A stretch of 18,962 nucleotides of DNA from a virus, in UHGV virus genome UHGV-0190812; one strand, 5' to 3'. A program made the position numbers and the translations under genes. Positions within the stretch are counted from its first letter, which is position 1; the number at the start of each line of letters is the position of its first letter. Positions 62 to 14,748 of this stretch are shown piece by piece. Below the pieces are notes generated by a model. It was not told the DNA's origin. It ran no database searches and was given only the letters and a program-made list of their open reading frames with translations.

Positions 62-592
62 ATGAGTTCTGTAATGAAATTTTCTGTTGTTAATGCAGTA
101 GTGCTGCTGTTGCTGATTGTACTTACTGGTGTTTTTTATATGAAAAAGTCAAAAGAAATTGCAGTTGTTAATATCGATACTATTTATAATCAGTCTACCG
201 CCGGAGACATGGCCAGAAAGCATCTGAATGAGGTTAAGAGTATTCTTGAAAAAGGATATGAGGATGCGCAAAAAGCATTCGCAGATAACGCGAATAAAGA
301 GGCGCTGCTTCTTGATGCCAGACAAAAACTGGAACGACAATATGTTATTGAGGAAAATAGCGCAAAAATGGTGTTATCCCGTGCGATAGATAATGCCATA
401 GGCACATGGAGAAAAGACAATCCTAAAAATATTGCCGTATTGTCTTCAGGTGTTGTGCTTGCGCATAACGAGTCAGCTGATATCACCAAAGAAGTCATGA
501 CTCTGGTTGAAAAAGAAAATCTGGTTTTTAATAAATTACCCAAAGTGGAAGTGCACAATAAGAATGAAGAGAAACCAGAACAAAGTAAGTAA
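62..592 (+). CDS. Skp/OmpH-like periplasmic chaperone family protein with N-terminal hydrophobic anchor
   Basis: 176-aa ORF. Hydrophobic N-terminus (VVNAVVLLLLIVLTGVF) followed by segments resembling E. coli Skp as recalled (IAVVNIDTIY vs IAIVNMGSLF; C-terminal AVLSSGVVLAHNESADITKEV vs [23 protein letters not shown]). Similarity judged by eye from memory, not searched. Confidence 0.55.
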   Translation: MSSVMKFSVVNAVVLLLLIVLTGVFYMKKSKEIAVVNIDTIYNQSTAGDMARKHLNEVKSILEKGYEDAQKAFADNANKEALLLDARQKLERQYVIEENSAKMVLSRAIDNAIGTWRKDNPKNIAVLSSGVVLAHNESADITKEVMTLVEKENLVFNKLPKVEVHNKNEEKPEQSK

Positions 593-1117
593 TCACTAGA
601 TTCTGACGATTTCCAGAAGGGAGATTCAGCAGGCCAGCATCTGTAATCATTCAGATTTGCTGGCTTGCTGCTAAATATGGTTGGTAAGAAAAATAGCAGG
701 CCAGTAATTTATTTAGATTACTGAATATAATAATTTTTCAGGAACGGTTATGCTGAAGGTAGTATGTTTAATCGACACAATTATTTGCTGTGTCTAATAT
801 GAGGTGACATTTTTATGATCACTGACCAGCAAGACTGACCCGTATTGATTAGCCTGATTATTGGCAACTTATTGGGGTAGTCATTTTGACATCCAATGGG
901 GGAGGTTTCCAGTTAAGTTCACGAATGCATGATGATTTGCGTTCACATATCGAAGTACTGGTTGACTATACTAAGGATTTTAAGATAACTCACTGATTGT
1001 AACTGGGTTATTGCGAGGGGGATGATAGATGGTGTCCCCTGCAGACATCTACTTGAAGCAGCAGGGGATTGATTGGAATGGTGTTTTTTAGATGTGAGAA
1101 ATATTTTACCCGCTATT

Positions 1118-1318
1118 TTACCCATTGGCGCGGCTTAAGAGCTTATTTTTGAATTCACAATGGTCACGATATAACCATCTTGCTCGCCCGTGGATAACTT
1201 TGGCTTTTGGCAGGTCGCCGGACTTAATCCGGTCATAGATGAAGGTTTTACCAAAGCCAGTATCAGCCATGATGAATTTCAAATCAACCAGTGAATCAGG
1301 CTGTAGTTCGTGTTGCAT
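1118..1318 (-). CDS. AlpA-family small DNA-binding protein (excisionase/regulator-like)
   Basis: 66-aa ORF; DLKFIMADTGFGKTFIYDRIKSGDLPKAKVIHGRARW is typical of the prophage AlpA/Xis-type helix-turn-helix family. GGAGA Shine-Dalgarno 8 nt upstream of the ATG. Confidence 0.7.
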   Translation of the reverse strand: MQHELQPDSLVDLKFIMADTGFGKTFIYDRIKSGDLPKAKVIHGRARWLYRDHCEFKNKLLSRANG

Positions 1319-1421
1319 GAGTGCTATCTCCGAATAGGGAATCGAACCTGCAAATCAGGTAATAAAAATACGCTCTATGACGGCGATGGTAGATCAGGAT
1401 ATTTTAAGAAACTGACAGGCC

Positions 1422-1700
1422 TCATCGAGTGTGAGGCTGTATGATTCCATGGTTACCTCTGCTTTTTGAACGCATGTCACGTAACTTCTTAATGTGTTCT
1501 GCCGTTTCGATCTCTTCTGCTATCCGATCTGCATCAGCTTTATTCACAGGTTCAAAGTCATGATTAAAGCGGAACATGCTGGCGATACATGTTCTGCCTT
1601 TTCGGATGTAGTGAACTTTGTTGTGGGTAGAACGCAGGATTTTGCAGGGAGTGCCGTGGTGGTCGACGTACCAGGTGTTAGGAAAAATGATTCTGAACAT
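1422..1700 (-). CDS. hypothetical phage early protein
   Basis: 92-aa ORF, co-oriented with the early-left operon; GAGGTG Shine-Dalgarno about 7 nt upstream of the ATG at 1700. No family recognised. Confidence 0.5.
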   Translation of the reverse strand: MFRIIFPNTWYVDHHGTPCKILRSTHNKVHYIRKGRTCIASMFRFNHDFEPVNKADADRIAEEIETAEHIKKLRDMRSKSRGNHGIIQPHTR

Positions 1701-1747
1701 TTTTACACCTCAGTTGGACGATGTTGAAATTTGCTGCTTTGAGGCCA

Positions 1748-1966
1748 TCACAGTCCCCATTGTTTGTTCTTAAGTTCGATCTCCTCCTGGCAACTTGCAC
1801 AAGTCCGACAACGCTGAACAGCCAGGCGTCTTCGCTCATCTATCGGATCGCCACACTCACAACAATGAGTTGCGGATACAGTCTGGTAGTTCTGACGACG
1901 CATTTTTATTGCTGTATTGCGCTGTAATTCTTCGATTTCTGATGCTGAATCAAAGATGTCTGCCAT
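1748..1966 (-). CDS. TraR/DksA-family C4 zinc-finger protein
   Basis: 72-aa ORF with CxxC-(17)-CxxC (CCECGDPIDERRRLAVQRCRTCASC), the usual spacing of phage/plasmid TraR-like proteins. Confidence 0.75.
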   Translation of the reverse strand: MADIFDSASEIEELQRNTAIKMRRQNYQTVSATHCCECGDPIDERRRLAVQRCRTCASCQEEIELKNKQWGL

Positions 1967-2064
1967 CTTCCATTAATCCCTGAATTGTTGGTTAATACGC
2001 TTGAGGATGAATGCGAACAATAAAAAAGGAGCCTGTAGCTCCCTGATGATTTTGCTTTTCATGT

Positions 2065-2280
2065 TCACCGTTCCTTAAAGACGCCGTTTAACATGCCGAT
2101 CGCCAGGCTTAAATGAGTCGGTGTGAATCCCATCAGCGTTACCGTTTCGCGGTGCTTCTTAAGTACGCTACGGCAAATGTCATCGACGTTTTTATCCGGA
2201 AACTGCTGTCTGGCTTTTTTGATTTCAGAATTAGCCTGACGGGCAATGCTGCGAAGGGCGTTTTCCTGCTGAGGTGTCAT
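2065..2280 (-). CDS. hypothetical small protein (start uncertain)
   Basis: ORF in the early-left operon; 71 aa from the ATG at 2280 (MTPQQENALRSIARQ...). In-frame upstream starts at 2346 (ATG) and 2379 (TTG) would overlap the end of the methylase gene. No family recognised. Confidence 0.45.
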   Translation of the reverse strand: MTPQQENALRSIARQANSEIKKARQQFPDKNVDDICRSVLKKHRETVTLMGFTPTHLSLAIGMLNGVFKER

Positions 2281-2356
2281 TGAACAAGTCCCATGTCGGC
2301 AAGCATAAGCACACAGAATATGAAGCCCGCTGCCAGAAAAATGCATTCCGTGGTTG

Positions 2357-2914
2357 TCATGCAGCCTCCCGACGGGCAAGAATCCTTGAGCCGAACGCCA
2401 TCAACTCTCCACGATCAACGGTCGTAAAGTGGCAGTGTGTACGGGGGTATGGGTGCCAGATAATGAGCATCGAGCCTTTATTATTTCCACTGACGGGTTT
2501 CTCAGTGAGTGGGTTAATAAATGCCAGTCGTCCTGCCGTGATGAATCTGACCTCACTGGCGGTTTGTATCGCTTCATGAAACCATCCGACAGATGTGTCA
2601 GCAGGCAATAACATTACACATCCCACACTACTGAATTTGTTTTCAGTGGCTGCCTTTTTCACAAAAGGGGAAATATTGCTGTATGGTGGATTCAACCAGA
2701 CATAACCAGAGGCATATCCCATTGCTTCAGGCCATGAAGTGGTTAATGTGTTCTGCTCCTGTGAGATAAAAAGCCGACATAGTCGGTTTTTTTCGCTGGC
2801 GGCAGCATCAAGTTGAAAAACGAACTCTGCATTAAGCGCAGCAAAAATCTCTGGTGGTGTGCGCCAGCTGTCGCGATGTTCGGCAGGAGTATTGCTTCCG
2901 GTGAAATCAGTCAT
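2357..2914 (-). CDS. phage-type DNA N6-adenine methyltransferase (Dam family)
   Basis: 185-aa ORF with WRTPPEIF, LDAAAS and NPPYS motifs characteristic of phage Dam-type MTases (motif I / motif IV DPPY-like). Confidence 0.85.
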   Translation of the reverse strand: MTDFTGSNTPAEHRDSWRTPPEIFAALNAEFVFQLDAAASEKNRLCRLFISQEQNTLTTSWPEAMGYASGYVWLNPPYSNISPFVKKAATENKFSSVGCVMLLPADTSVGWFHEAIQTASEVRFITAGRLAFINPLTEKPVSGNNKGSMLIIWHPYPRTHCHFTTVDRGELMAFGSRILARREAA

Positions 2915-3068
2915 ACAGCCCCCGTTTATTATTTATCGCCTCAGCCAGCCGCTGTGCTTTCAGTGGATTTCTGATAACAGAAAGGCCGGGAAATACCCAG
3001 CCTCGCTTTGTAACGGAGTAGATGAAAGTGATCGCGCCTACCCGGATATTATCGTGAGGATGCTTCAT
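2907..3068 (-). CDS. small hypothetical protein, translationally coupled between exo and the methylase gene
   Basis: 53-codon ORF below the ORF-track size cut-off. Its ATG overlaps the exo stop (ATGA) and its stop overlaps the methylase ATG (ATGACTGA), as read by hand from the sequence. Confidence 0.3.
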
Positions 3069-3745
3069 CGCCATTGCTCCCCAAATACAAAACCAATTTC
3101 AGCCAGTGCCACGTCCATTTTTTCGATGAACTCCGGCACCATCTCGTCAAAATTCGCCATGTACTTTTCATTCCGCTCAATCACGACATAATGCAGGCCT
3201 TCACGCTTCATACGCGGGTCATAGTTGGCAAAGTACCAGGCATCTTTTCGCGTCACCCACATGCTGTACTGCACCTGGGCCATGTAAGCCGATTTTATGG
3301 CCTCGAAACCACCGAGCCGGAACTTCATGAAATCCCGGGAGGTAAACGGGCATTTCAGTTCAAGGCCGTTGCCGTCACTGCATAAACCATCGGGAGAGCA
3401 GGCGGTGCGCATACTTTCGTCGCGATAGATGATCGGGGATTCAGTAACATTCACGCCGGAAGTGAATTCAAACAGGGTTCTGGCGTCGTTCTCGTACTGT
3501 TTTCCCCAGGCCAGCGCCTTAGCATTAACTTCCGGAGCCACACCGGTGCAAACCTCAGCCAGCAGGGTGTGGAAGTAGGACATTTTCATGTCAGGCCACT
3601 TCTTTCCTGAGCGGGGCTTTGCTATCACGTTGTGAACTTCTGAAGCGGTGATGACGCCGAGCCGTAATTTGTGCCATGCATCATCCCCCTGTTCGACAGC
3701 TCTCACGTCGATCCCGGTACGCTGCAGGATAATGTCCGGTATCAT
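3065..3745 (-). CDS. exo: Red-alpha 5'-3' exonuclease (lambda Exo)
   Basis: 226-aa translation is near-identical over its whole length to lambda Exo as recalled ([54 protein letters not shown]...). Stop/start overlap with bet. Confidence 0.95.
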
Positions 3746-10288: not shown

Positions 10289-10633
10289 AAGCTCAGAAAG
10301 CTGTAATAATATTTTTTCTGGAGTGGTTTCGTTGGAAATGCTAAATAATACAGCACCTTTGACTGATTCATCTCTCATTTCAATTTCACATGAATTATGG
10401 TTGTATGAGATTGCATAATTTTTTAATGTTCTTTCGCTTTGCCACCACACCATATTTGCAAGACTTCCGTTATACGTTCTTATCTCGATTGATCCGGGCA
10501 GGGCTTTCCAGATAACACCTCCTAGCAATGTAAGAGCGGCTGCACCAACATTTTTTGCATGATGGTTAGAACGTTCCATTACCCCTTCAGCATAACGATG
10601 AAGAATCTCTATGTCAGTCGCTTTGATAGTCAT
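10286..10633 (-). CDS. hypothetical protein, 115 aa; reverse-oriented AT-rich moron in the ren slot
   Basis: ORF opposite in orientation to the flanking replication and nin genes, with visibly lower GC and an AT-rich upstream region (10634-10860) containing an extended -10-like TGCTATATT on the minus strand. No family recognised. Confidence 0.55.
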   Translation of the reverse strand: MTIKATDIEILHRYAEGVMERSNHHAKNVGAAALTLLGGVIWKALPGSIEIRTYNGSLANMVWWQSERTLKNYAISYNHNSCEIEMRDESVKGAVLFSISNETTPEKILLQLSEL

Positions 10634-10862
10634 GTTATTTCCATGTAATTGCTGTGTGAAACGTAGTGTTAGTTAGGTGTTAGCAGAATATAGCATCAAA
10701 GTCGAAACCGGTAGAAAAAATATTGGTGATTATTTCGCTGCATTTGGAACTGGAACAACAATGATTATTAGCATGATTGCTTTTTCCAGTCATAAGAATG
10801 AGTCGTGTTAATTTTTTCTATTCAATAGGAAATTATCATGTCATCAGAATATGAACAACTAT

Positions 10863-10960
10863 GGTGACTTCTGCGCTAAACGGGGACGTTTATGCGCACA
10901 TACAATCCAAACTCTCTTCTCCCTCCACAGATGCAGAAATACACCTGCGATTTTTTGCAT
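10863..10960. repeat. ~98-bp direct repeat, copy A (tR2-like terminator module upstream of the cassette)
   Basis: About 95% identical by eye to 13348-13446 (GGTGACTTCTGCGCTAAACGGGGACGTTTATGCGCACA...CACCTGCG-T(7)-GCAT); contains a short GC stem plus T-run. Confidence 0.8.
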
Positions 10961-11111
10961 TCGGTGTTTTTGGCAGCCAAGAACAGGGAGTCTCTGTTTG
11001 TCTGGCGGCTAAAGGTGATATGGAAATCGTGATGTCTTAGCCTAAAGTAGTTGCAACAGTTGGAGCGATTATGGTGGTAGTAGTGATCATCGCGCCCCCC
11101 ATATGCAAGGG

Positions 11112-11224
11112 TTGACGACATTATTTATCCGGCGCTATATTCTGTGCGTTGCCGCAAAATCGGCACACGGGATTGGCGTCCCGGAATACTACTCAACGCA
11201 TACCGCGTTAAGCGGTTTTTTTAT
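11112..11224 (+). promoter_or_regulatory. promoter plus ~75-nt structured leader ending in an intrinsic terminator (attenuator or small RNA) upstream of the Bro-N gene
   Basis: TTGACG (11112-11117), 18-nt spacer, TATATT (11136-11141). Downstream stem-loops TGCCG/CGGCA and CGGGA/TCCCG, then ACCGC-GTTAA-GCGGT followed by T(7) at about 11202-11222. Confidence 0.35.
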
Positions 11225-11378
11225 GCGCTAAGCACGGCTACGCCCAAATTATGGTGGGCTGTGTGAGGGCTTCTTCGGGAGCGCCGGGTTTGAGTAGCCG
11301 GTTACGCCAACCTTGCACAGTTCACCACCAGTCGATTGGCGTCGTTGGTGGTGATGGTTAACCTGATGAGGTGATACT

Positions 11379-11939
11379 ATGACTACTCAATTAGCATTCC
11401 ACAAAACGACGTTTACCCCAATTTGCCACAATAACAGAATTTGGCTTACTGCCACTGAAGTTGGTTTAGCTCTGGAATATGCGGACGATAAAGCAGTTCA
11501 GCGCATTTACTCTCGTCACTCAGATGAATTTACAGATATGATGACAAGGGTGGTCAAAGTGACCACCCCTCGTGGAATGCAGGAGTCTCGAGTATTTAGC
11601 CTTCGCGGAGCCCATTTGATCGCCATGTTTGCACGAACTCCTGTAGCCAAAGAGTTCCGCCGCTGGGTTCTGGATATTCTCGATCGAGAAGTTCAACAAT
11701 CCCCAATCATAAAACAATTCACTGATAACGAACTTTGCACACTTGCTTGGTTATGGCGAGCAGGGGATGTGATGTTAACCGCCTGCCAGAATGTTACTCC
11801 ACTTCTTCAGGTTGCGGAGCACCGCGAAGCTGGTCGCTTTACTTCTATCGGGCAAGAATATCCCCAGATACTACATAAGGCGCGCGAAATCCTTGCCAGA
11901 GAAACGGCACCATGTAAAACTCCAGCCTTGGCAGGATAA
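11379..11939 (+). CDS. Bro-N domain protein (putative antirepressor-like)
   Basis: 186-aa ORF. N-terminal FHKTTFTPICHNNRIWLTATEVGLALEY...IYSRHSDEF...VFSLRGAHLIAMFARTPVAKEFRRWVLDIL fits the Bro-N fold motif pattern of phage antirepressors. GAGGTGA Shine-Dalgarno. Confidence 0.7.
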   Translation: MTTQLAFHKTTFTPICHNNRIWLTATEVGLALEYADDKAVQRIYSRHSDEFTDMMTRVVKVTTPRGMQESRVFSLRGAHLIAMFARTPVAKEFRRWVLDILDREVQQSPIIKQFTDNELCTLAWLWRAGDVMLTACQNVTPLLQVAEHREAGRFTSIGQEYPQILHKAREILARETAPCKTPALAG

Positions 11940-12150
11940 TAAGTGGAGCAGGGTGTTGCCACATTTGCGTCAGGATAGATTGCAATAGTTTTACATATTA
12001 GGCGCTGAATGGATGCAATCAGATAGCGCACTGGGCGGCAATGATTAAGGCTTCAGATAAGCCAAGTAAGCACTGAAAAAGTTCAATGTAATCAAATTCT
12101 CTTTATGGTATTTTCGTTAGACATCTCATACGCTTAGATGGAAATTTGAA

Positions 12151-12351
12151 ATGATGTATTCAGTAACTTTCGATGAAACTGGACGAGTAGAAGATATTGA
12201 ACTAGAGCGTGAGGTTAGAGCCGGAGATAGACTCTCGCTTAATATTGATGGTCTTGATGGTATTTATATAGTCATGACTGTTAGCGGCCCTATCTATGAA
12301 AATGTTTGTGTGCCAATGAATATCCGGGTTCAAAAGTATTGGAAGCAATGA
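12151..12351 (+). CDS. hypothetical small protein (66 aa)
   Basis: ORF within the repeat-flanked cassette, followed directly by a hairpin terminator. Weak Shine-Dalgarno; no family recognised. Confidence 0.3.
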   Translation: MMYSVTFDETGRVEDIELEREVRAGDRLSLNIDGLDGIYIVMTVSGPIYENVCVPMNIRVQKYWKQ

Positions 12352-12356
12352 TGTAT

Positions 12357-12385
12357 AATCCCCTCAGATGATCGAGGGGATTTTT
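12357..12385 (+). terminator. intrinsic terminator hairpin whose 3' arm contains the Shine-Dalgarno of the next ORF
   Basis: ATCCCCTC-AGATGAT-GAGGGGAT stem (8 bp) followed by TTTTT, then the ATG at 12386; the GAGGGGA in the 3' arm is the only Shine-Dalgarno for that ORF. Confidence 0.45.
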
Positions 12386-12559
12386 ATGTCAGATTGGAAC
12401 ATTGCAGCAAAACCGCAAGAGGAACGTGACAATGTTAACTTTGACCTTGCTGCGTCTGGTGTTGCATATAAAGAACGCTCCAAAATTCTCGTCATAGCCG
12501 AAGTGGTGATGTGCCAGCAACCAGAGCATCTTTGTGATTACTTCATGGAGCGCGTCTGA
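12386..12559 (+). CDS. hypothetical small protein (57 aa)
   Basis: ATG at 12386 with GAGGGGA 5 nt upstream; the track ORF starts 18 nt earlier at 12368. No family recognised. Confidence 0.35.
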   Translation: MSDWNIAAKPQEERDNVNFDLAASGVAYKERSKILVIAEVVMCQQPEHLCDYFMERV

Positions 12560-12631
12560 CTTCTCCATTGAGCATAGCATCACCCAGCCTAAAACATCTG
12601 ACCCTAGATATATGAAACAGGAGGAAGATAA

Positions 12632-13264
12632 ATGAAATTCTCTCGAATTGAACAAAGCCCAACAACGGATGAGGGTAATTACGTGAAAATCGATCATGAC
12701 TTTGGCTATTTTCTAGATCCTAATAAAATGGCCTCGATAGCTAACTATGAGGATGAGTCTGCCGCGCTATTAAAATTGATGCTAATTCATGAGGACTTTC
12801 TTCGGGTTGTTATTGAAAACTTACGACCTGATGGCTCTGAAAAATACAATTCGATAAGAAGCTATAAGTATTTTGCGTCAAAGCTGTCTGCCGCAGTTCT
12901 GTTAGGGCTTCCTGTCTCGCTTGCAGACGCTATGGCTGAGCTCAACACAATACGTAACAAGTACGCTCATAAAATTGAATATGTAATTACAAATGAAGAG
13001 GTTGATAAACTCGCAGAATCGATTAAAAACATAAAGTTAGAAGAGATTAACCATGGTGGCTACGTGCATCAAGTTGTTGAGCCAATTCTCAAGGATGGAA
13101 TCTACGCTATAGCGTTGATGAAAGAGCTACCTCCTGATCTTGAAGAAAATCGCATTCGTATTTGTAAGTTAGTCACTAGCGCGCATTGTATGTGTTTGCT
13201 CGGGGCCTTCTGGTTAATTAACACTCTGCACGTAAAGGGTAAGCTCAAGCTTTCCAAGGCCTGA
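12632..13264 (+). CDS. hypothetical protein (210 aa) with HEPN-like Rx4H motif; candidate abortive-infection or toxin RNase
   Basis: Strong AGGAGG Shine-Dalgarno. Markedly AT-rich by eye. Contains ELNTIRNKYAHK (R-x4-H in an RN..AH context, as in HEPN families such as Abi_2 or DUF4145). The assignment is inference from this one motif. Confidence 0.6.
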   Translation: MKFSRIEQSPTTDEGNYVKIDHDFGYFLDPNKMASIANYEDESAALLKLMLIHEDFLRVVIENLRPDGSEKYNSIRSYKYFASKLSAAVLLGLPVSLADAMAELNTIRNKYAHKIEYVITNEEVDKLAESIKNIKLEEINHGGYVHQVVEPILKDGIYAIALMKELPPDLEENRIRICKLVTSAHCMCLLGAFWLINTLHVKGKLKLSKA

Positions 13265-13347
13265 GTAGATCAATCGTATCATTTTCGCAAAATTGATTCT
13301 CCGTAATCAATTCGCCATAATTGTATCACCGGAGCCTGAACAACTTC

Positions 13348-13446
13348 GGTGACTTCTGCGCTAAACGGGGACGTTTATGCGCACACACAATCCAAACTCT
13401 CTTCTCCCTTCACAGATGCAGAAATGCACCTGCGTTTTTTTGCATC
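13348..13446. repeat. ~98-bp direct repeat, copy B (tR2-like module immediately upstream of ninB)
   Basis: Near-identical to 10863-10960 with about five mismatches. Confidence 0.8.
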
Positions 13447-13474
13447 CAGCGTCTGACCTCTACGGAGGTGAAGC

Positions 13475-13930
13475 GTGAACCTCCCACAAGACGGCATCAA
13501 ATTGCATCGCGGTAACTTCACCGCTATCGGTCGGCAGATCCAGCCTTATCTGGAGGACGGCAAATGCTTTCGCATGGTGCTTAAACCGTGGCGAGAGAGA
13601 CGCAGTCTTTCCCAGAATGCACTCAGCCACATGTGGTACAGCGAAATCAGTGAATACCTCATCAGTAGGGGTAAAACGTTCGCTACTGCAGCATGGGTAA
13701 AAGATGCTCTCAAACACACATACCTCGGTTATGAAACCAAAGAACTGGTTGATGTCGTAACTGGTGAAATCACTACTATCCAGTCGTTACGTCATACTTC
13801 CGATCTTGATACCGGAGAGATGTATGTCTTCCTGTGCAAGATTGAAGCCTGGGCGATGAATATTGGCTGTCACCTGACTATTCCGCAGAGCTGCGAGTTC
13901 CAGCTGCTGCGCGACAAGCAGGAGGCGTAA
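13475..13930 (+). CDS. ninB: NinB-family recombination protein
   Basis: 151-aa ORF (GTG start in the track, GGAGG upstream). [17 protein letters not shown] resembles the lambda NinB segment RSLDQNRKLWACLGDVS as recalled; position after the tR2-like element. Confidence 0.7.
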
Positions 13931-14100
13931 TGGCTACACCGCTTATTCGTGTCATGAACGGGCACATCTACAGAGTATCAAATCGTCGTAAGCGTAAGCC
14001 TGAGCTGAAACCATCCGAAATACCAACACTGCTCGGATATACCGCCAGCCTGGTTGATAAAAAATGGTTGCGACTGGCAGCAAGGAGGAATCATGGCTGA
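13930..14100 (+). CDS. ninE: NinE-like small protein
   Basis: 56-aa ORF below the track size cut-off. ATG overlaps the ninB stop (TAATG). C-terminus [24 protein letters not shown] resembles lambda NinE ([21 protein letters not shown]) as recalled. Confidence 0.45.
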   Translation: MATPLIRVMNGHIYRVSNRRKRKPELKPSEIPTLLGYTASLVDKKWLRLAARRNHG

Positions 14101-14383
14101 TTTGAGAAAAGCAGCGCGTGGTCGGGAATGCCAGGTAAGAATCCCTGGCGTATGTAATGGCAATCCTGAAACGTCAGTACTGGCACATATCCGGCTGGCT
14201 GGATTGTGCGGTACCGGTATCAAACCGCCAGACCTGATTGCCACCATTGCATGTTCTGCCTGCCACGACGAAATCGACCGTCGCACGCATTTTGTTGACG
14301 CTGGATATGCAAAAGAATGTGCGCTGGAAGGTATGGCGAGAACACAGGTTATCTGGCTGAAAGAGGGGGTAATTAAGGCGTGA
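14093..14383 (+). CDS. YbcO-like (DUF1364-type) Cys-rich nin-region protein
   Basis: 96 aa from the ATG at 14093 (AGGAGG Shine-Dalgarno); Cys cluster CQVRIPGVC...CSAC; lies between NinE-like and RusA as in the DLP12 gene order I recall. Confidence 0.55.
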
Positions 14384-14748
14384 ATACTTACTGCATCACA
14401 CTACCCTGGCCGCCGAGCAATAACCGCTATTACCGCCATAATCGCGGGCGCACGCACGTCAGTGCAGAGGGGCAGGCATACCGCGATAACGTCGCCCGAA
14501 TCATTAAAAACGCAATGCTGGATATCGGCCTGGCTATGCCTGTGAAAATCCGCATTGAGTGCCACATGCCGGATCGCCGTCGCCGTGACCTGGATAATCT
14601 GCAAAAAGCCGCTTTTGACGCACTCACTAAAGCAGGTTTCTGGCTGGATGATGCTCAGGTCGTTGATTACCGCGTTGTGAAGATGCCCGTTACCAAAGGT
14701 GGGAAGCTGGAGCTGACCATCACCGAACTGGGAATGAATGATGTTTGA
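14380..14748 (+). CDS. rusA: RusA Holliday-junction resolvase
   Basis: 122-aa translation is near-identical to E. coli DLP12 RusA as recalled ([91 protein letters not shown]...). Confidence 0.9.

Follow-up and report, generated by a model that had tools for sequence, protein, structure and literature searches.

A conserved hairpin leader that may mask the ribosome-binding site of a truncated theta (Hot) gene in a lambdoid prophage

Transposase mRNAs of the insertion sequences IS10 and IS50 are reportedly guarded against outside read-through by fold-back inhibition, and 'moron' accessory genes are said to be bracketed by a promoter and a terminator of their own. In lambdoid phages the nin region contains terminators that RNA polymerase passes under antitermination (lambda tR2-tR4), RNase III processing of the lambda N leader unmasks a Shine-Dalgarno sequence, and translational coupling via an intercistronic hairpin that sequesters the Shine-Dalgarno sequence is a general mechanism found in several Escherichia coli operons and in RNA phages. 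The element described here is a hairpin in the UHGV virus genome UHGV-0190812 (18,962 nucleotides, the whole of which is called the window below). It stands on the + strand, as do the genes and RNA features given here for 11112-13264, between an open reading frame (ORF) for 66 amino acids (aa), ORF66, and a 57-aa ORF related to DNA polymerase III subunit theta (Hot in phage P1). The window is a lambdoid E. coli prophage, and the hairpin site lies in its nin region, between ren and ninB/ybcN. We tentatively favour the reading, which falls just short of being probable, that RNA reading through from upstream is terminated and/or masked at the hairpin, whereas RNA from a promoter borne by the leader itself escapes; promoter activity, termination and masking are all deduced from sequence.

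The upper stem of 9 bp (five to six G-C) closes an 8-nt loop and begins 5 nt past the ORF66 stop codon TGA (12349-12351). Its 5' arm AATCCCCTC (12357-12365), which forms the anti-Shine-Dalgarno strand, and its 3' arm GAGGGGATT (12374-12382) were delimited from the sequence, a terminator scan and RNAfold, and they enclose the loop AGATGATC (12366-12373); the 8-bp arms ATCCCCTC/GAGGGGAT given in the first-pass annotation, which had been made from the sequence alone, are the core of this stem. A T5 run (12381-12385) provides both a terminator-like U-tract and the spacer between the Shine-Dalgarno sequence and AUG. The hairpin by itself has a dG of -14.3 kcal/mol. In the extended fold (-20.4 kcal/mol, RNAfold) a lower stem is added, in which UGAUGUA (12349-12355), containing the ORF66 stop, pairs with UAUGUCA (12385-12391), containing the first two codons (AUG and Ser) of the theta ORF, so that the upstream stop is paired to the downstream AUG; these pairs (columns 7-13 with 47-53 of alignment A2) are retained in most relatives. 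The 91-nt region as a whole folded at -25.5 kcal/mol (z = -3.23), a value equalled or bettered by one of 200 shuffled sequences. In the terminator scan of 10500-14500 the hairpin ranked first (9 pairs, 5 G-C, loop 8), although the number of terminator-like sites in that region, five against 3.0 +/- 2.1 in shuffles, was not above chance. The tail past the 9-bp stem reads UUUAUGU, with the U-run interrupted, and past the G-C core it reads AUUUUUAU. The pattern CCCCTC-N8-GAGGGG with up to two mismatches is expected 0.30 times by chance in the window, and a lone 9-bp inverted repeat in 19 kb is unremarkable; it is the placement and the conservation in relatives that make the hairpin real.

Within 20 nt of the ATG at 12386, GAGGGG (12374-12379) is the only Shine-Dalgarno-like sequence. 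The first-pass annotation was right on both of these points, the terminator look of the hairpin (9-bp stem plus T5, top site of the scan) and the 3' arm as the sole Shine-Dalgarno sequence of this ATG. Another in-frame ATG, at 12368, lies inside the loop without a Shine-Dalgarno sequence, and since the loops of the relatives (AAATCATC, AGGCCATC and others) lack it, it is not a conserved start. By thermodynamic prediction, read-through RNA starting at or before 12349 leaves the Shine-Dalgarno sequence unpaired with a probability of 0.001 and the AUG with 0.02, versus 0.73 and 0.61, respectively, in RNA beginning at 12366. The annotation had also proposed that read-through RNA would have its ribosome-binding site occluded and that translation of the 57-aa ORF would be conditional. 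The predicted masking and the conserved arrangement make this a reasonable proposal, resting on thermodynamics as far as the masking goes.

Theta loci were gathered by protein similarity alone, which leaves the sample unbiased as to the leader. Among 80 such loci on viral contigs, 23 carried the leader directly upstream of theta, and in a further 17 it preceded a 60-aa ORF sharing a TAATG overlap with theta; the other 40 had no leader, and theta was mostly joined there to the upstream gene by a TAATG overlap. Where theta has the leader, at least five unrelated genes stand upstream (ORF66, ...AAPQQE, ...FLEIVD, ...KVNIDG and ...MQRLA). A scan for the exact pattern TATAATCCCCTC-N8-GAGGGG returned 87 copies, each followed by a short T-rich tail and ATG. 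The gene behind a copy may be theta, the 60-aa ORF or one of several unrelated ORFs (82, 101, ~165 and ~168 aa), which makes at least five unrelated cargo genes. Whichever gene stands behind the leader, its second codon is nearly always a Ser codon (TCN), in keeping with the lower stem. Because unrelated genes vary on both sides of it, the hairpin is the core of a conserved portable leader of ~45 bp and not a feature of one gene pair. The order of the leader is stop codon, TG, TATAAT, CCCCTC, variable loop, GAGGGG, U-run and ATG-TCN. In lambdoid prophages it stands at the head of accessory ('moron'-type) genes of the nin region, among which theta (Hot) is the most frequent. A megablast search of complete E. 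coli genomes gave 20-22 matches, a figure that is not an estimate of prevalence, the search being too strict for the divergence.

Conservation is concentrated in the stems. Among 78 exact-match relatives there were 21 different loops, with the stems essentially invariant. In a MAFFT alignment of 25 distinct leaders, 88% of the cells were paired, compared with 43-67% when the partners were slid by 1-3 columns, and all one-sided stem changes led to G.U and none to A.C, which points to pairing of sense-strand RNA and not to a DNA or antisense structure. The comparison was extended to leaders from Kluyvera, Citrobacter, Klebsiella, Raoultella, Phytobacter, Serratia, Rouxiella, Ewingella and Pectobacterium. 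There, a change in the arm goes along with one in the Shine-Dalgarno sequence: against CCCCTC/GAGGGG there were CTCTCC/GGAGAG, TCCTCC/GGAGGA, ATCCTCT/GGAGGAT and ATCTTCC/GGAGGAT. Arms folded with their own partners at a mean of -10.7 kcal/mol and as swapped-lineage chimeras at -7.5 kcal/mol, and in 20000 permutations the native mean was never reached, in a between-lineage test that ignores the relatedness of the sequences and on which the claim of covariation rests.

The same data bear on the possibility that the hairpin is a processing or protein-binding site, either an RNase III/RNase E target between cistrons or a DNA operator of two 9-bp half-sites. The extended stem of ~16 bp with an internal loop, the AU-rich single-stranded UAUAAU beside the stem and the precedent of the lambda N leader would suit processing; however, 16 bp is short for RNase III. 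The arms are separated by 5-8 nt in the E. coli-type class and by 4-6 nt in distant relatives, and this variable loop length, together with the G.U-only changes, fits RNA pairing and not a dimeric DNA-binding protein; the operator was rejected on these grounds. Nor did any Rfam family match: with Rfam 15, no covariance model reached E <= 1 at the hairpin (12340-12400). Overall, we regard a processing or protein-binding site as very improbable.

Another explanation is a plain intrinsic terminator, closing the upstream unit of C4 RNA, antirepressor gene and ORF66 (in other phages, the nin gene ahead of it), with the Shine-Dalgarno overlap as a by-product of tight packing and the downstream gene switched on only under phage antitermination. 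This is what the best terminator-like site of 10500-14500 would look like, a G+C-rich stem of -14.3 kcal/mol followed by T5, and nearly all 78 E. coli-type copies have a U-rich tail (GTTTT, ATTTTT, GTTTTT, ATTTTTT and others). Moreover, the same hairpin is labelled 'terminator' in the record of phage HK639, a canonical terminator occupies the same place behind a distant homologue of ORF66, and the nin region offers the precedent of terminators read through under antitermination. What termination does not need is a lower stem that pairs the AUG, and it gives no account of the conserved TATAAT or of the conserved A at the start of the loop. In addition, the versions from Serratia, Rouxiella, Ewingella and others keep the Shine-Dalgarno hairpin without a U-run. 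Since these distant relatives retain the one without the other, masking of the Shine-Dalgarno sequence appears to be the more deeply conserved trait, and the terminator-like tail a trait of the E. coli-type subfamily. A terminator and nothing more is, in our judgement, a doubtful account of the site.

The TATAAT that a terminator leaves unexplained (12354-12359) is a consensus -10-like hexamer overlapping the 5' side of the stem, and we take it for an element of the leader's own putative promoter. TATAAT is its prevailing form across 27 leader contexts from several genera, TATACT occurs several times, and TACAAT and TATCAT are each seen in a single context; T1, A2 and T6 are invariant. Six pyrimidine-rich bases follow, and the seventh base is A in 21 of the 27. 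Sigma-70 promoters prefer to start at the 7th base downstream of the -10 hexamer, so that a working hexamer would start transcription at A12366, the first base of the loop, with C at -1; the 5' arm (12357-12365) would then be -9 to -1 of this promoter. The sole lineage without A2, the B1S11 type (TCTAAT), also has a dead theta. In locus L237 the leader follows a canonical terminator, and the cargo gene there would therefore need a promoter of its own.

A possible origin of this arrangement is seen in holE, the chromosomal member of the theta family. E. coli K-12 holE carries TTGCCA-17-TAACTT ending 28 nt ahead of its ATG, and many of the other chromosomal holE genes examined (e.g., Cedecea, Pantoea, Erwinia) carry TTGnnA-17-TAnnTT ending 23-26 nt before ATG; the site that scored best was farther from the ATG, by 33-42 nt, in some genera, Pectobacterium among them. 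In the window the hexamer ends 26 nt ahead of the ATG at 12386, within about 2 nt of the holE -10 box position, and the K-12 holE leader GAATGATGAGGAGATT is similar to the window leader AGATGATCGAGGGGATT. The phage leader thus looks like a captured holE promoter plus leader with the -10 box improved to consensus, and a better -10 box without a -35 box in the phage copies would fit compensation. In K-12 the upstream neighbour of holE, yobA, is divergent, and the hairpin is absent. A sequence complementary to the Shine-Dalgarno sequence was seen between the -10 box and the predicted start in holE of Erwinia persicina (L149/L150) and of Cedecea and Enterobacter (L148/L152/L172), with the arms CCCCTT/AGGGGG and CTTCTGCG/TGCAGGAG.

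The favoured mechanism would then operate as follows. In transcripts arriving from upstream, be it from the C4-RNA/antirepressor/ORF66 unit or from the early operon, the anti-Shine-Dalgarno arm would pair with the Shine-Dalgarno sequence, and the lower stem would pair the upstream stop region with the AUG. The hairpin and the U-run could end incoming transcription, and any RNA that reads through would keep a masked ribosome-binding site. RNA from the presumed TATAAT promoter would start at A12366 and, because a start in the loop leaves out the 5' arm, would escape both termination and masking. Translation would thus be governed by the start point of the transcript, as in the fold-back inhibition of IS10/IS50. 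The terminator part receives independent support from the ORF66 homologue (50% identical), which has the canonical terminator at the same place but no theta.

Several observations weigh against this mechanism. No -35 box or extended -10 conserved across the phage contexts was found; the best -35 matches had 1-4 of 6 positions, about what chance should give with three spacings allowed (an expectation, not a background tally). In the window the best -35-like hexamer is TTCAAA at 19-bp spacing, and with such a spacing any promoter here would be weak. The conservation of TATAAT could partly reflect RNA pairing, of AAU with AUU in the upper stem and of UA/UAU with the AUG in the lower one. In the E. 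coli-type class of the 25-leader MAFFT alignment no pair had changed on both sides, which is conservation and not covariation, and the between-lineage permutation test makes no correction for relatedness. The U-run is short, broken by the ATG and missing in distant relatives. With half of the theta loci hairpin-less and TAATG-coupled, expression of theta from the early operon is apparently not avoided in general. Finally, the complementarity of arm and Shine-Dalgarno sequence in chromosomal holE is left unexplained by a fold-back model.

Coupling is also what the first-pass annotation had in mind for this junction: a ribosome ending at the upstream stop would open the hairpin. A variant is that it would reinitiate at the AUG, kept beside the stop by the lower stem; in both cases the downstream protein would be made in proportion to upstream translation. 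The distance between stop and stem is informative here. In the window and in 37 of the 78 exact-match relatives the stop ends 5 nt before the stem, behind several different genes, and at this fixed position it is TGA or TAA (in the wider sample TAG, too). The lower stem, in which the region of the stop codon is paired with the AUG, would also suit coupling, and the TAATG overlaps of the hairpin-less loci suggest that coupling is the norm for theta. The distance is 8 nt in a further 6 of the 78, but in the others the stop lies 20, 36 and up to 116 nt upstream, or there is no upstream ORF (together ~43% of the copies without a close stop). Moreover, the helicase of the ribosome works ~11 nt away from the P site, so that a ribosome halted at the stop (12349-12351) would open the lower stem but reach only ~12357-12360 of the upper one, and the 6-bp core CCCCUC/GAGGGG (-10.4 kcal/mol) would stay closed. 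Coupling also gives TATAAT no role. Melting of the hairpin by upstream ribosomes is therefore possible in the window, where the stop is 5 nt off and juxtaposed with the AUG, but it does not hold in general, and as an explanation of the leader we find coupling unlikely.

The further suggestion, that ORF66 and the 57-aa ORF resemble a toxin-antitoxin pair whose stoichiometry is set by the hairpin, has only the general look of the locus in its favour, two small adjacent ORFs with a structured junction. ORF66 (12151-12351) belongs to phrog_38858, of unknown function, and is a hypothetical protein in RefSeq; it had no match in Pfam, NCBIfam or PADLOC, and none to a toxin, antitoxin or defence system. 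The second ORF, likewise without a match to such families, is theta/Hot, frameshifted here. The pair is not conserved either, as the leader and theta occur with unrelated neighbours and the ORF66 homologue occurs without theta. The toxin-antitoxin pair was rejected on the gene identities and the lack of conserved pairing, and the analogy drawn in the earlier annotation falls with it; we give it practically no credence.

The 57-aa ORF (12386-12559) aligns to positions 2-55 of the 70 in the PF06440 profile (E = 4.2e-20; 71.7 bits, the Pfam gathering score being 34.6) and matches theta with E = 3e-12 as well as the PHROG families 'DNA polymerase III theta subunit'. Its best relative of solved structure is phage P1 Hot (PDB 1se7/2ido; E = 1.7e-20, residues 1-57 of 83). 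Theta relatives are 80-85 aa long, and alignment to intact relatives of 82 aa places a 1-nt insertion after codon 57 of the window copy. This insertion puts a TGA in frame; the other 26 codons (...SITQPKTSDPRYMKQEEDK) are read in the +1 frame to 12635. The rest of the gene (12560-12635, +1 frame only) thus ends in ...SDFSIEHSITQPKTSDPRYMKQEEDK*, its stop overlapping the ATG at 12632 as ATGA, and RefSeq gives 12386-12635 as a pseudogene, 'DNA polymerase III subunit theta, frameshifted'. The '57-aa ORF' is evidently a truncated, decayed allele of theta (Hot) and not a full-length gene. Since the theta it would regulate is decayed, the hairpin may no longer matter to this prophage. The segment 12100-12640 is 100% identical to strain 95-3322, with ~96% identity in the flanking 4 kb.

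Prophage theta genes seem to decay often. Nonsense or frameshift mutations have truncated theta to 12-58 aa in 7 of 167 loci (L055, L056, L080, L110, L120, L124 and the window), and the stop of L080 at codon 59 lies beside the break at codon 58 in the window. Theta is disrupted near its start in two further loci, L002 (strain B1S11, 3260-3330) and L007, where it is dead owing to 4 nt inserted behind codon 4 and to a TAG. The leader of this lineage has the hexamer changed from TATAAT to TCTAAT and an A-to-T change in the 3' arm; these changes are consistent with relaxed constraint after gene loss. Across the loci, synonymous divergence of the theta alleles is saturated (dS > 1 or undefined), and dN/dS is uninformative on recent decay. 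The first ~30 nt of theta and the leader stems are near-identical between loci despite the saturated synonymous sites, and these near-identical 5' ends point to probable mosaic boundaries within the 5' end of theta.

Past theta lies the cargo gene ORF210 (12632-13264; phrog_5712), which has weak HEPN/DUF4145 similarity and no PADLOC hit. In relatives this slot is filled by more than 20 unrelated gene families, and the gene there usually overlaps the theta stop by ATGA or TAATG. Because so many unrelated families follow it, theta appears to mark the 5' edge of a hypervariable cargo slot. Theta and ORF210 as a functional unit, which the ATGA overlap might have indicated, was rejected on the same count. 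In phage PhiR26_1 the ren-ninB region upstream of the antirepressor (Rha) gene holds the defence gene PD-lambda-1.

Upstream of ORF66, a promoter-like site TTGACG-18-TATATT (11112-11141, promoter scan) is followed by an IsrK-like RNA (11150-11222; Rfam isrK, 60.7 bits) and a C4 antisense RNA (11247-11332; Rfam C4, 72.7 bits), both above the gathering score. The a1b1 target of C4 scored 40.6 bits in Rfam, under the gathering score; isrK, C4 and a1b1, all within 11135-11332, were the only Rfam matches in 10600-13600. Next comes an antirepressor-like ORF of 186 aa (11379-11939) with Bro-N and P22AR C-terminal domains (Pfam) and matches to PHROG anti-repressor families. The stretch 11112-11939 looks like an RNA-controlled antirepressor module of the P1 immI type or the Gifsy IsrK/AnrP type, placed in the nin region. 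As the promoter-like site, isrK, C4 and the antirepressor ORF all lie upstream of it, ORF66 is the last gene of a P1-immI-like C4-antirepressor unit. Compared with the 202-aa protein of 95-3322 (L001), the C-terminus of the antirepressor is frameshifted, with ...ILARETA followed by PCKTPALAG* and not by HVKLQPWQDNKWSRVLPHLRQDRLQ*; together with theta this makes two decayed genes within 1.3 kb.

The block from the antirepressor through ORF66 and theta to ORF210 is flanked by a direct repeat of 160 nt with 83% identity (10808-10967 and 13293-13452). Each copy holds a terminator-like hairpin (10932-10949 and 13414-13437), and the second copy corresponds to the region upstream of ninB/orf151 described in phage 82 (X92588) as 'putative promoter, possible regulator-binding site, orf33'. 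This suggests that the block was inserted through recombination between such repeats.

A broader proposal, which we regard as possible rather than probable, is that the chromosomal holE promoter and leader gave rise to a mobile and self-contained 'insulated expression head' for prophage cargo, namely the ~45-bp leader. It would terminate incoming transcription, mask the ribosome-binding site of RNA that reads through (e.g., under lytic antitermination) and embed a -10 box such that only RNA started in the hairpin is efficiently translated, with the result that cargo would be translated specifically in the lysogen; the block from TGATGTATAAT to ATGTC would serve as a homology arm for the exchange of nin cassettes. 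If this is true, temperate phages make accessory genes 'plug-and-play' through one short leader, which insulates the cargo from phage early transcription and provides a switch of translation by transcript origin, the same logic as that of insertion sequences against outside promoters. The series TATAAT, anti-Shine-Dalgarno arm, loop, Shine-Dalgarno sequence, U-run and ATG would then be a signature for cargo-gene boundaries in lambdoid prophages. For this window the meaning is more modest: an ordinary regulatory or terminator element ahead of a decayed phage theta (Hot), and no toxin-antitoxin system. Literature searches on theta in prophages, the start sites of holE, phage HK639 and fold-back inhibition turned up no work dealing directly with the element.

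Taken by its parts, the element is of known kinds, namely an intrinsic-terminator-like hairpin, a masked ribosome-binding site and a moron boundary; what is possibly new is their conserved, portable combination with a putative embedded -10 box. With coupling hairpins it shares the paired distal Shine-Dalgarno sequence and AUG and a proximal stop a few nt from the stem, but 43% of the copies do not keep the distance from stop to stem and the strong core lies beyond the terminating ribosome. The position between ren and ninB, the G+C-rich stem with a U-run and the location at the boundary of exchangeable cassettes are those of nin terminators and morons; here, however, terminator, -10 box and ribosome-binding site overlap within ~45 bp, and the terminator stem itself is the Shine-Dalgarno sequence of the next gene. 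P1 hot and E. coli holE belong to the same protein family as the gene behind the leader, and P1 hot has its own promoter (annotated as LPhot) directly upstream, as is presumed for the window, while holE has the similar leader and a -10 box within 2 nt. The window allele differs in being cut at residue 57 of ~82, and the P1 and K-12 leaders, unlike that of the window, have no strong anti-Shine-Dalgarno hairpin; the K-12 holE leader folds no better than shuffles (z = +1.3).

The likeness to IS10 and IS50 lies in the logic of the fold-back. In those elements, too, the sequence just upstream of the element's own start complements the ribosome-binding site, only longer RNAs fold back, and RNA from the resident promoter starts between the two arms, as it would here from the presumed promoter. 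In the window the 5' arm and the ribosome-binding site stand in the same relation, CCCCUC pairing with GAGGGG and the lower stem covering the AUG. The two differ in that the resident promoter here is deduced from a -10 box of consensus sequence unaccompanied by a -35 box, and in that the hairpin here also has a U-run and may hence terminate transcription. Moreover, the element is not part of an insertion sequence but the leader of prophage accessory genes, and it is common to several unrelated ones.

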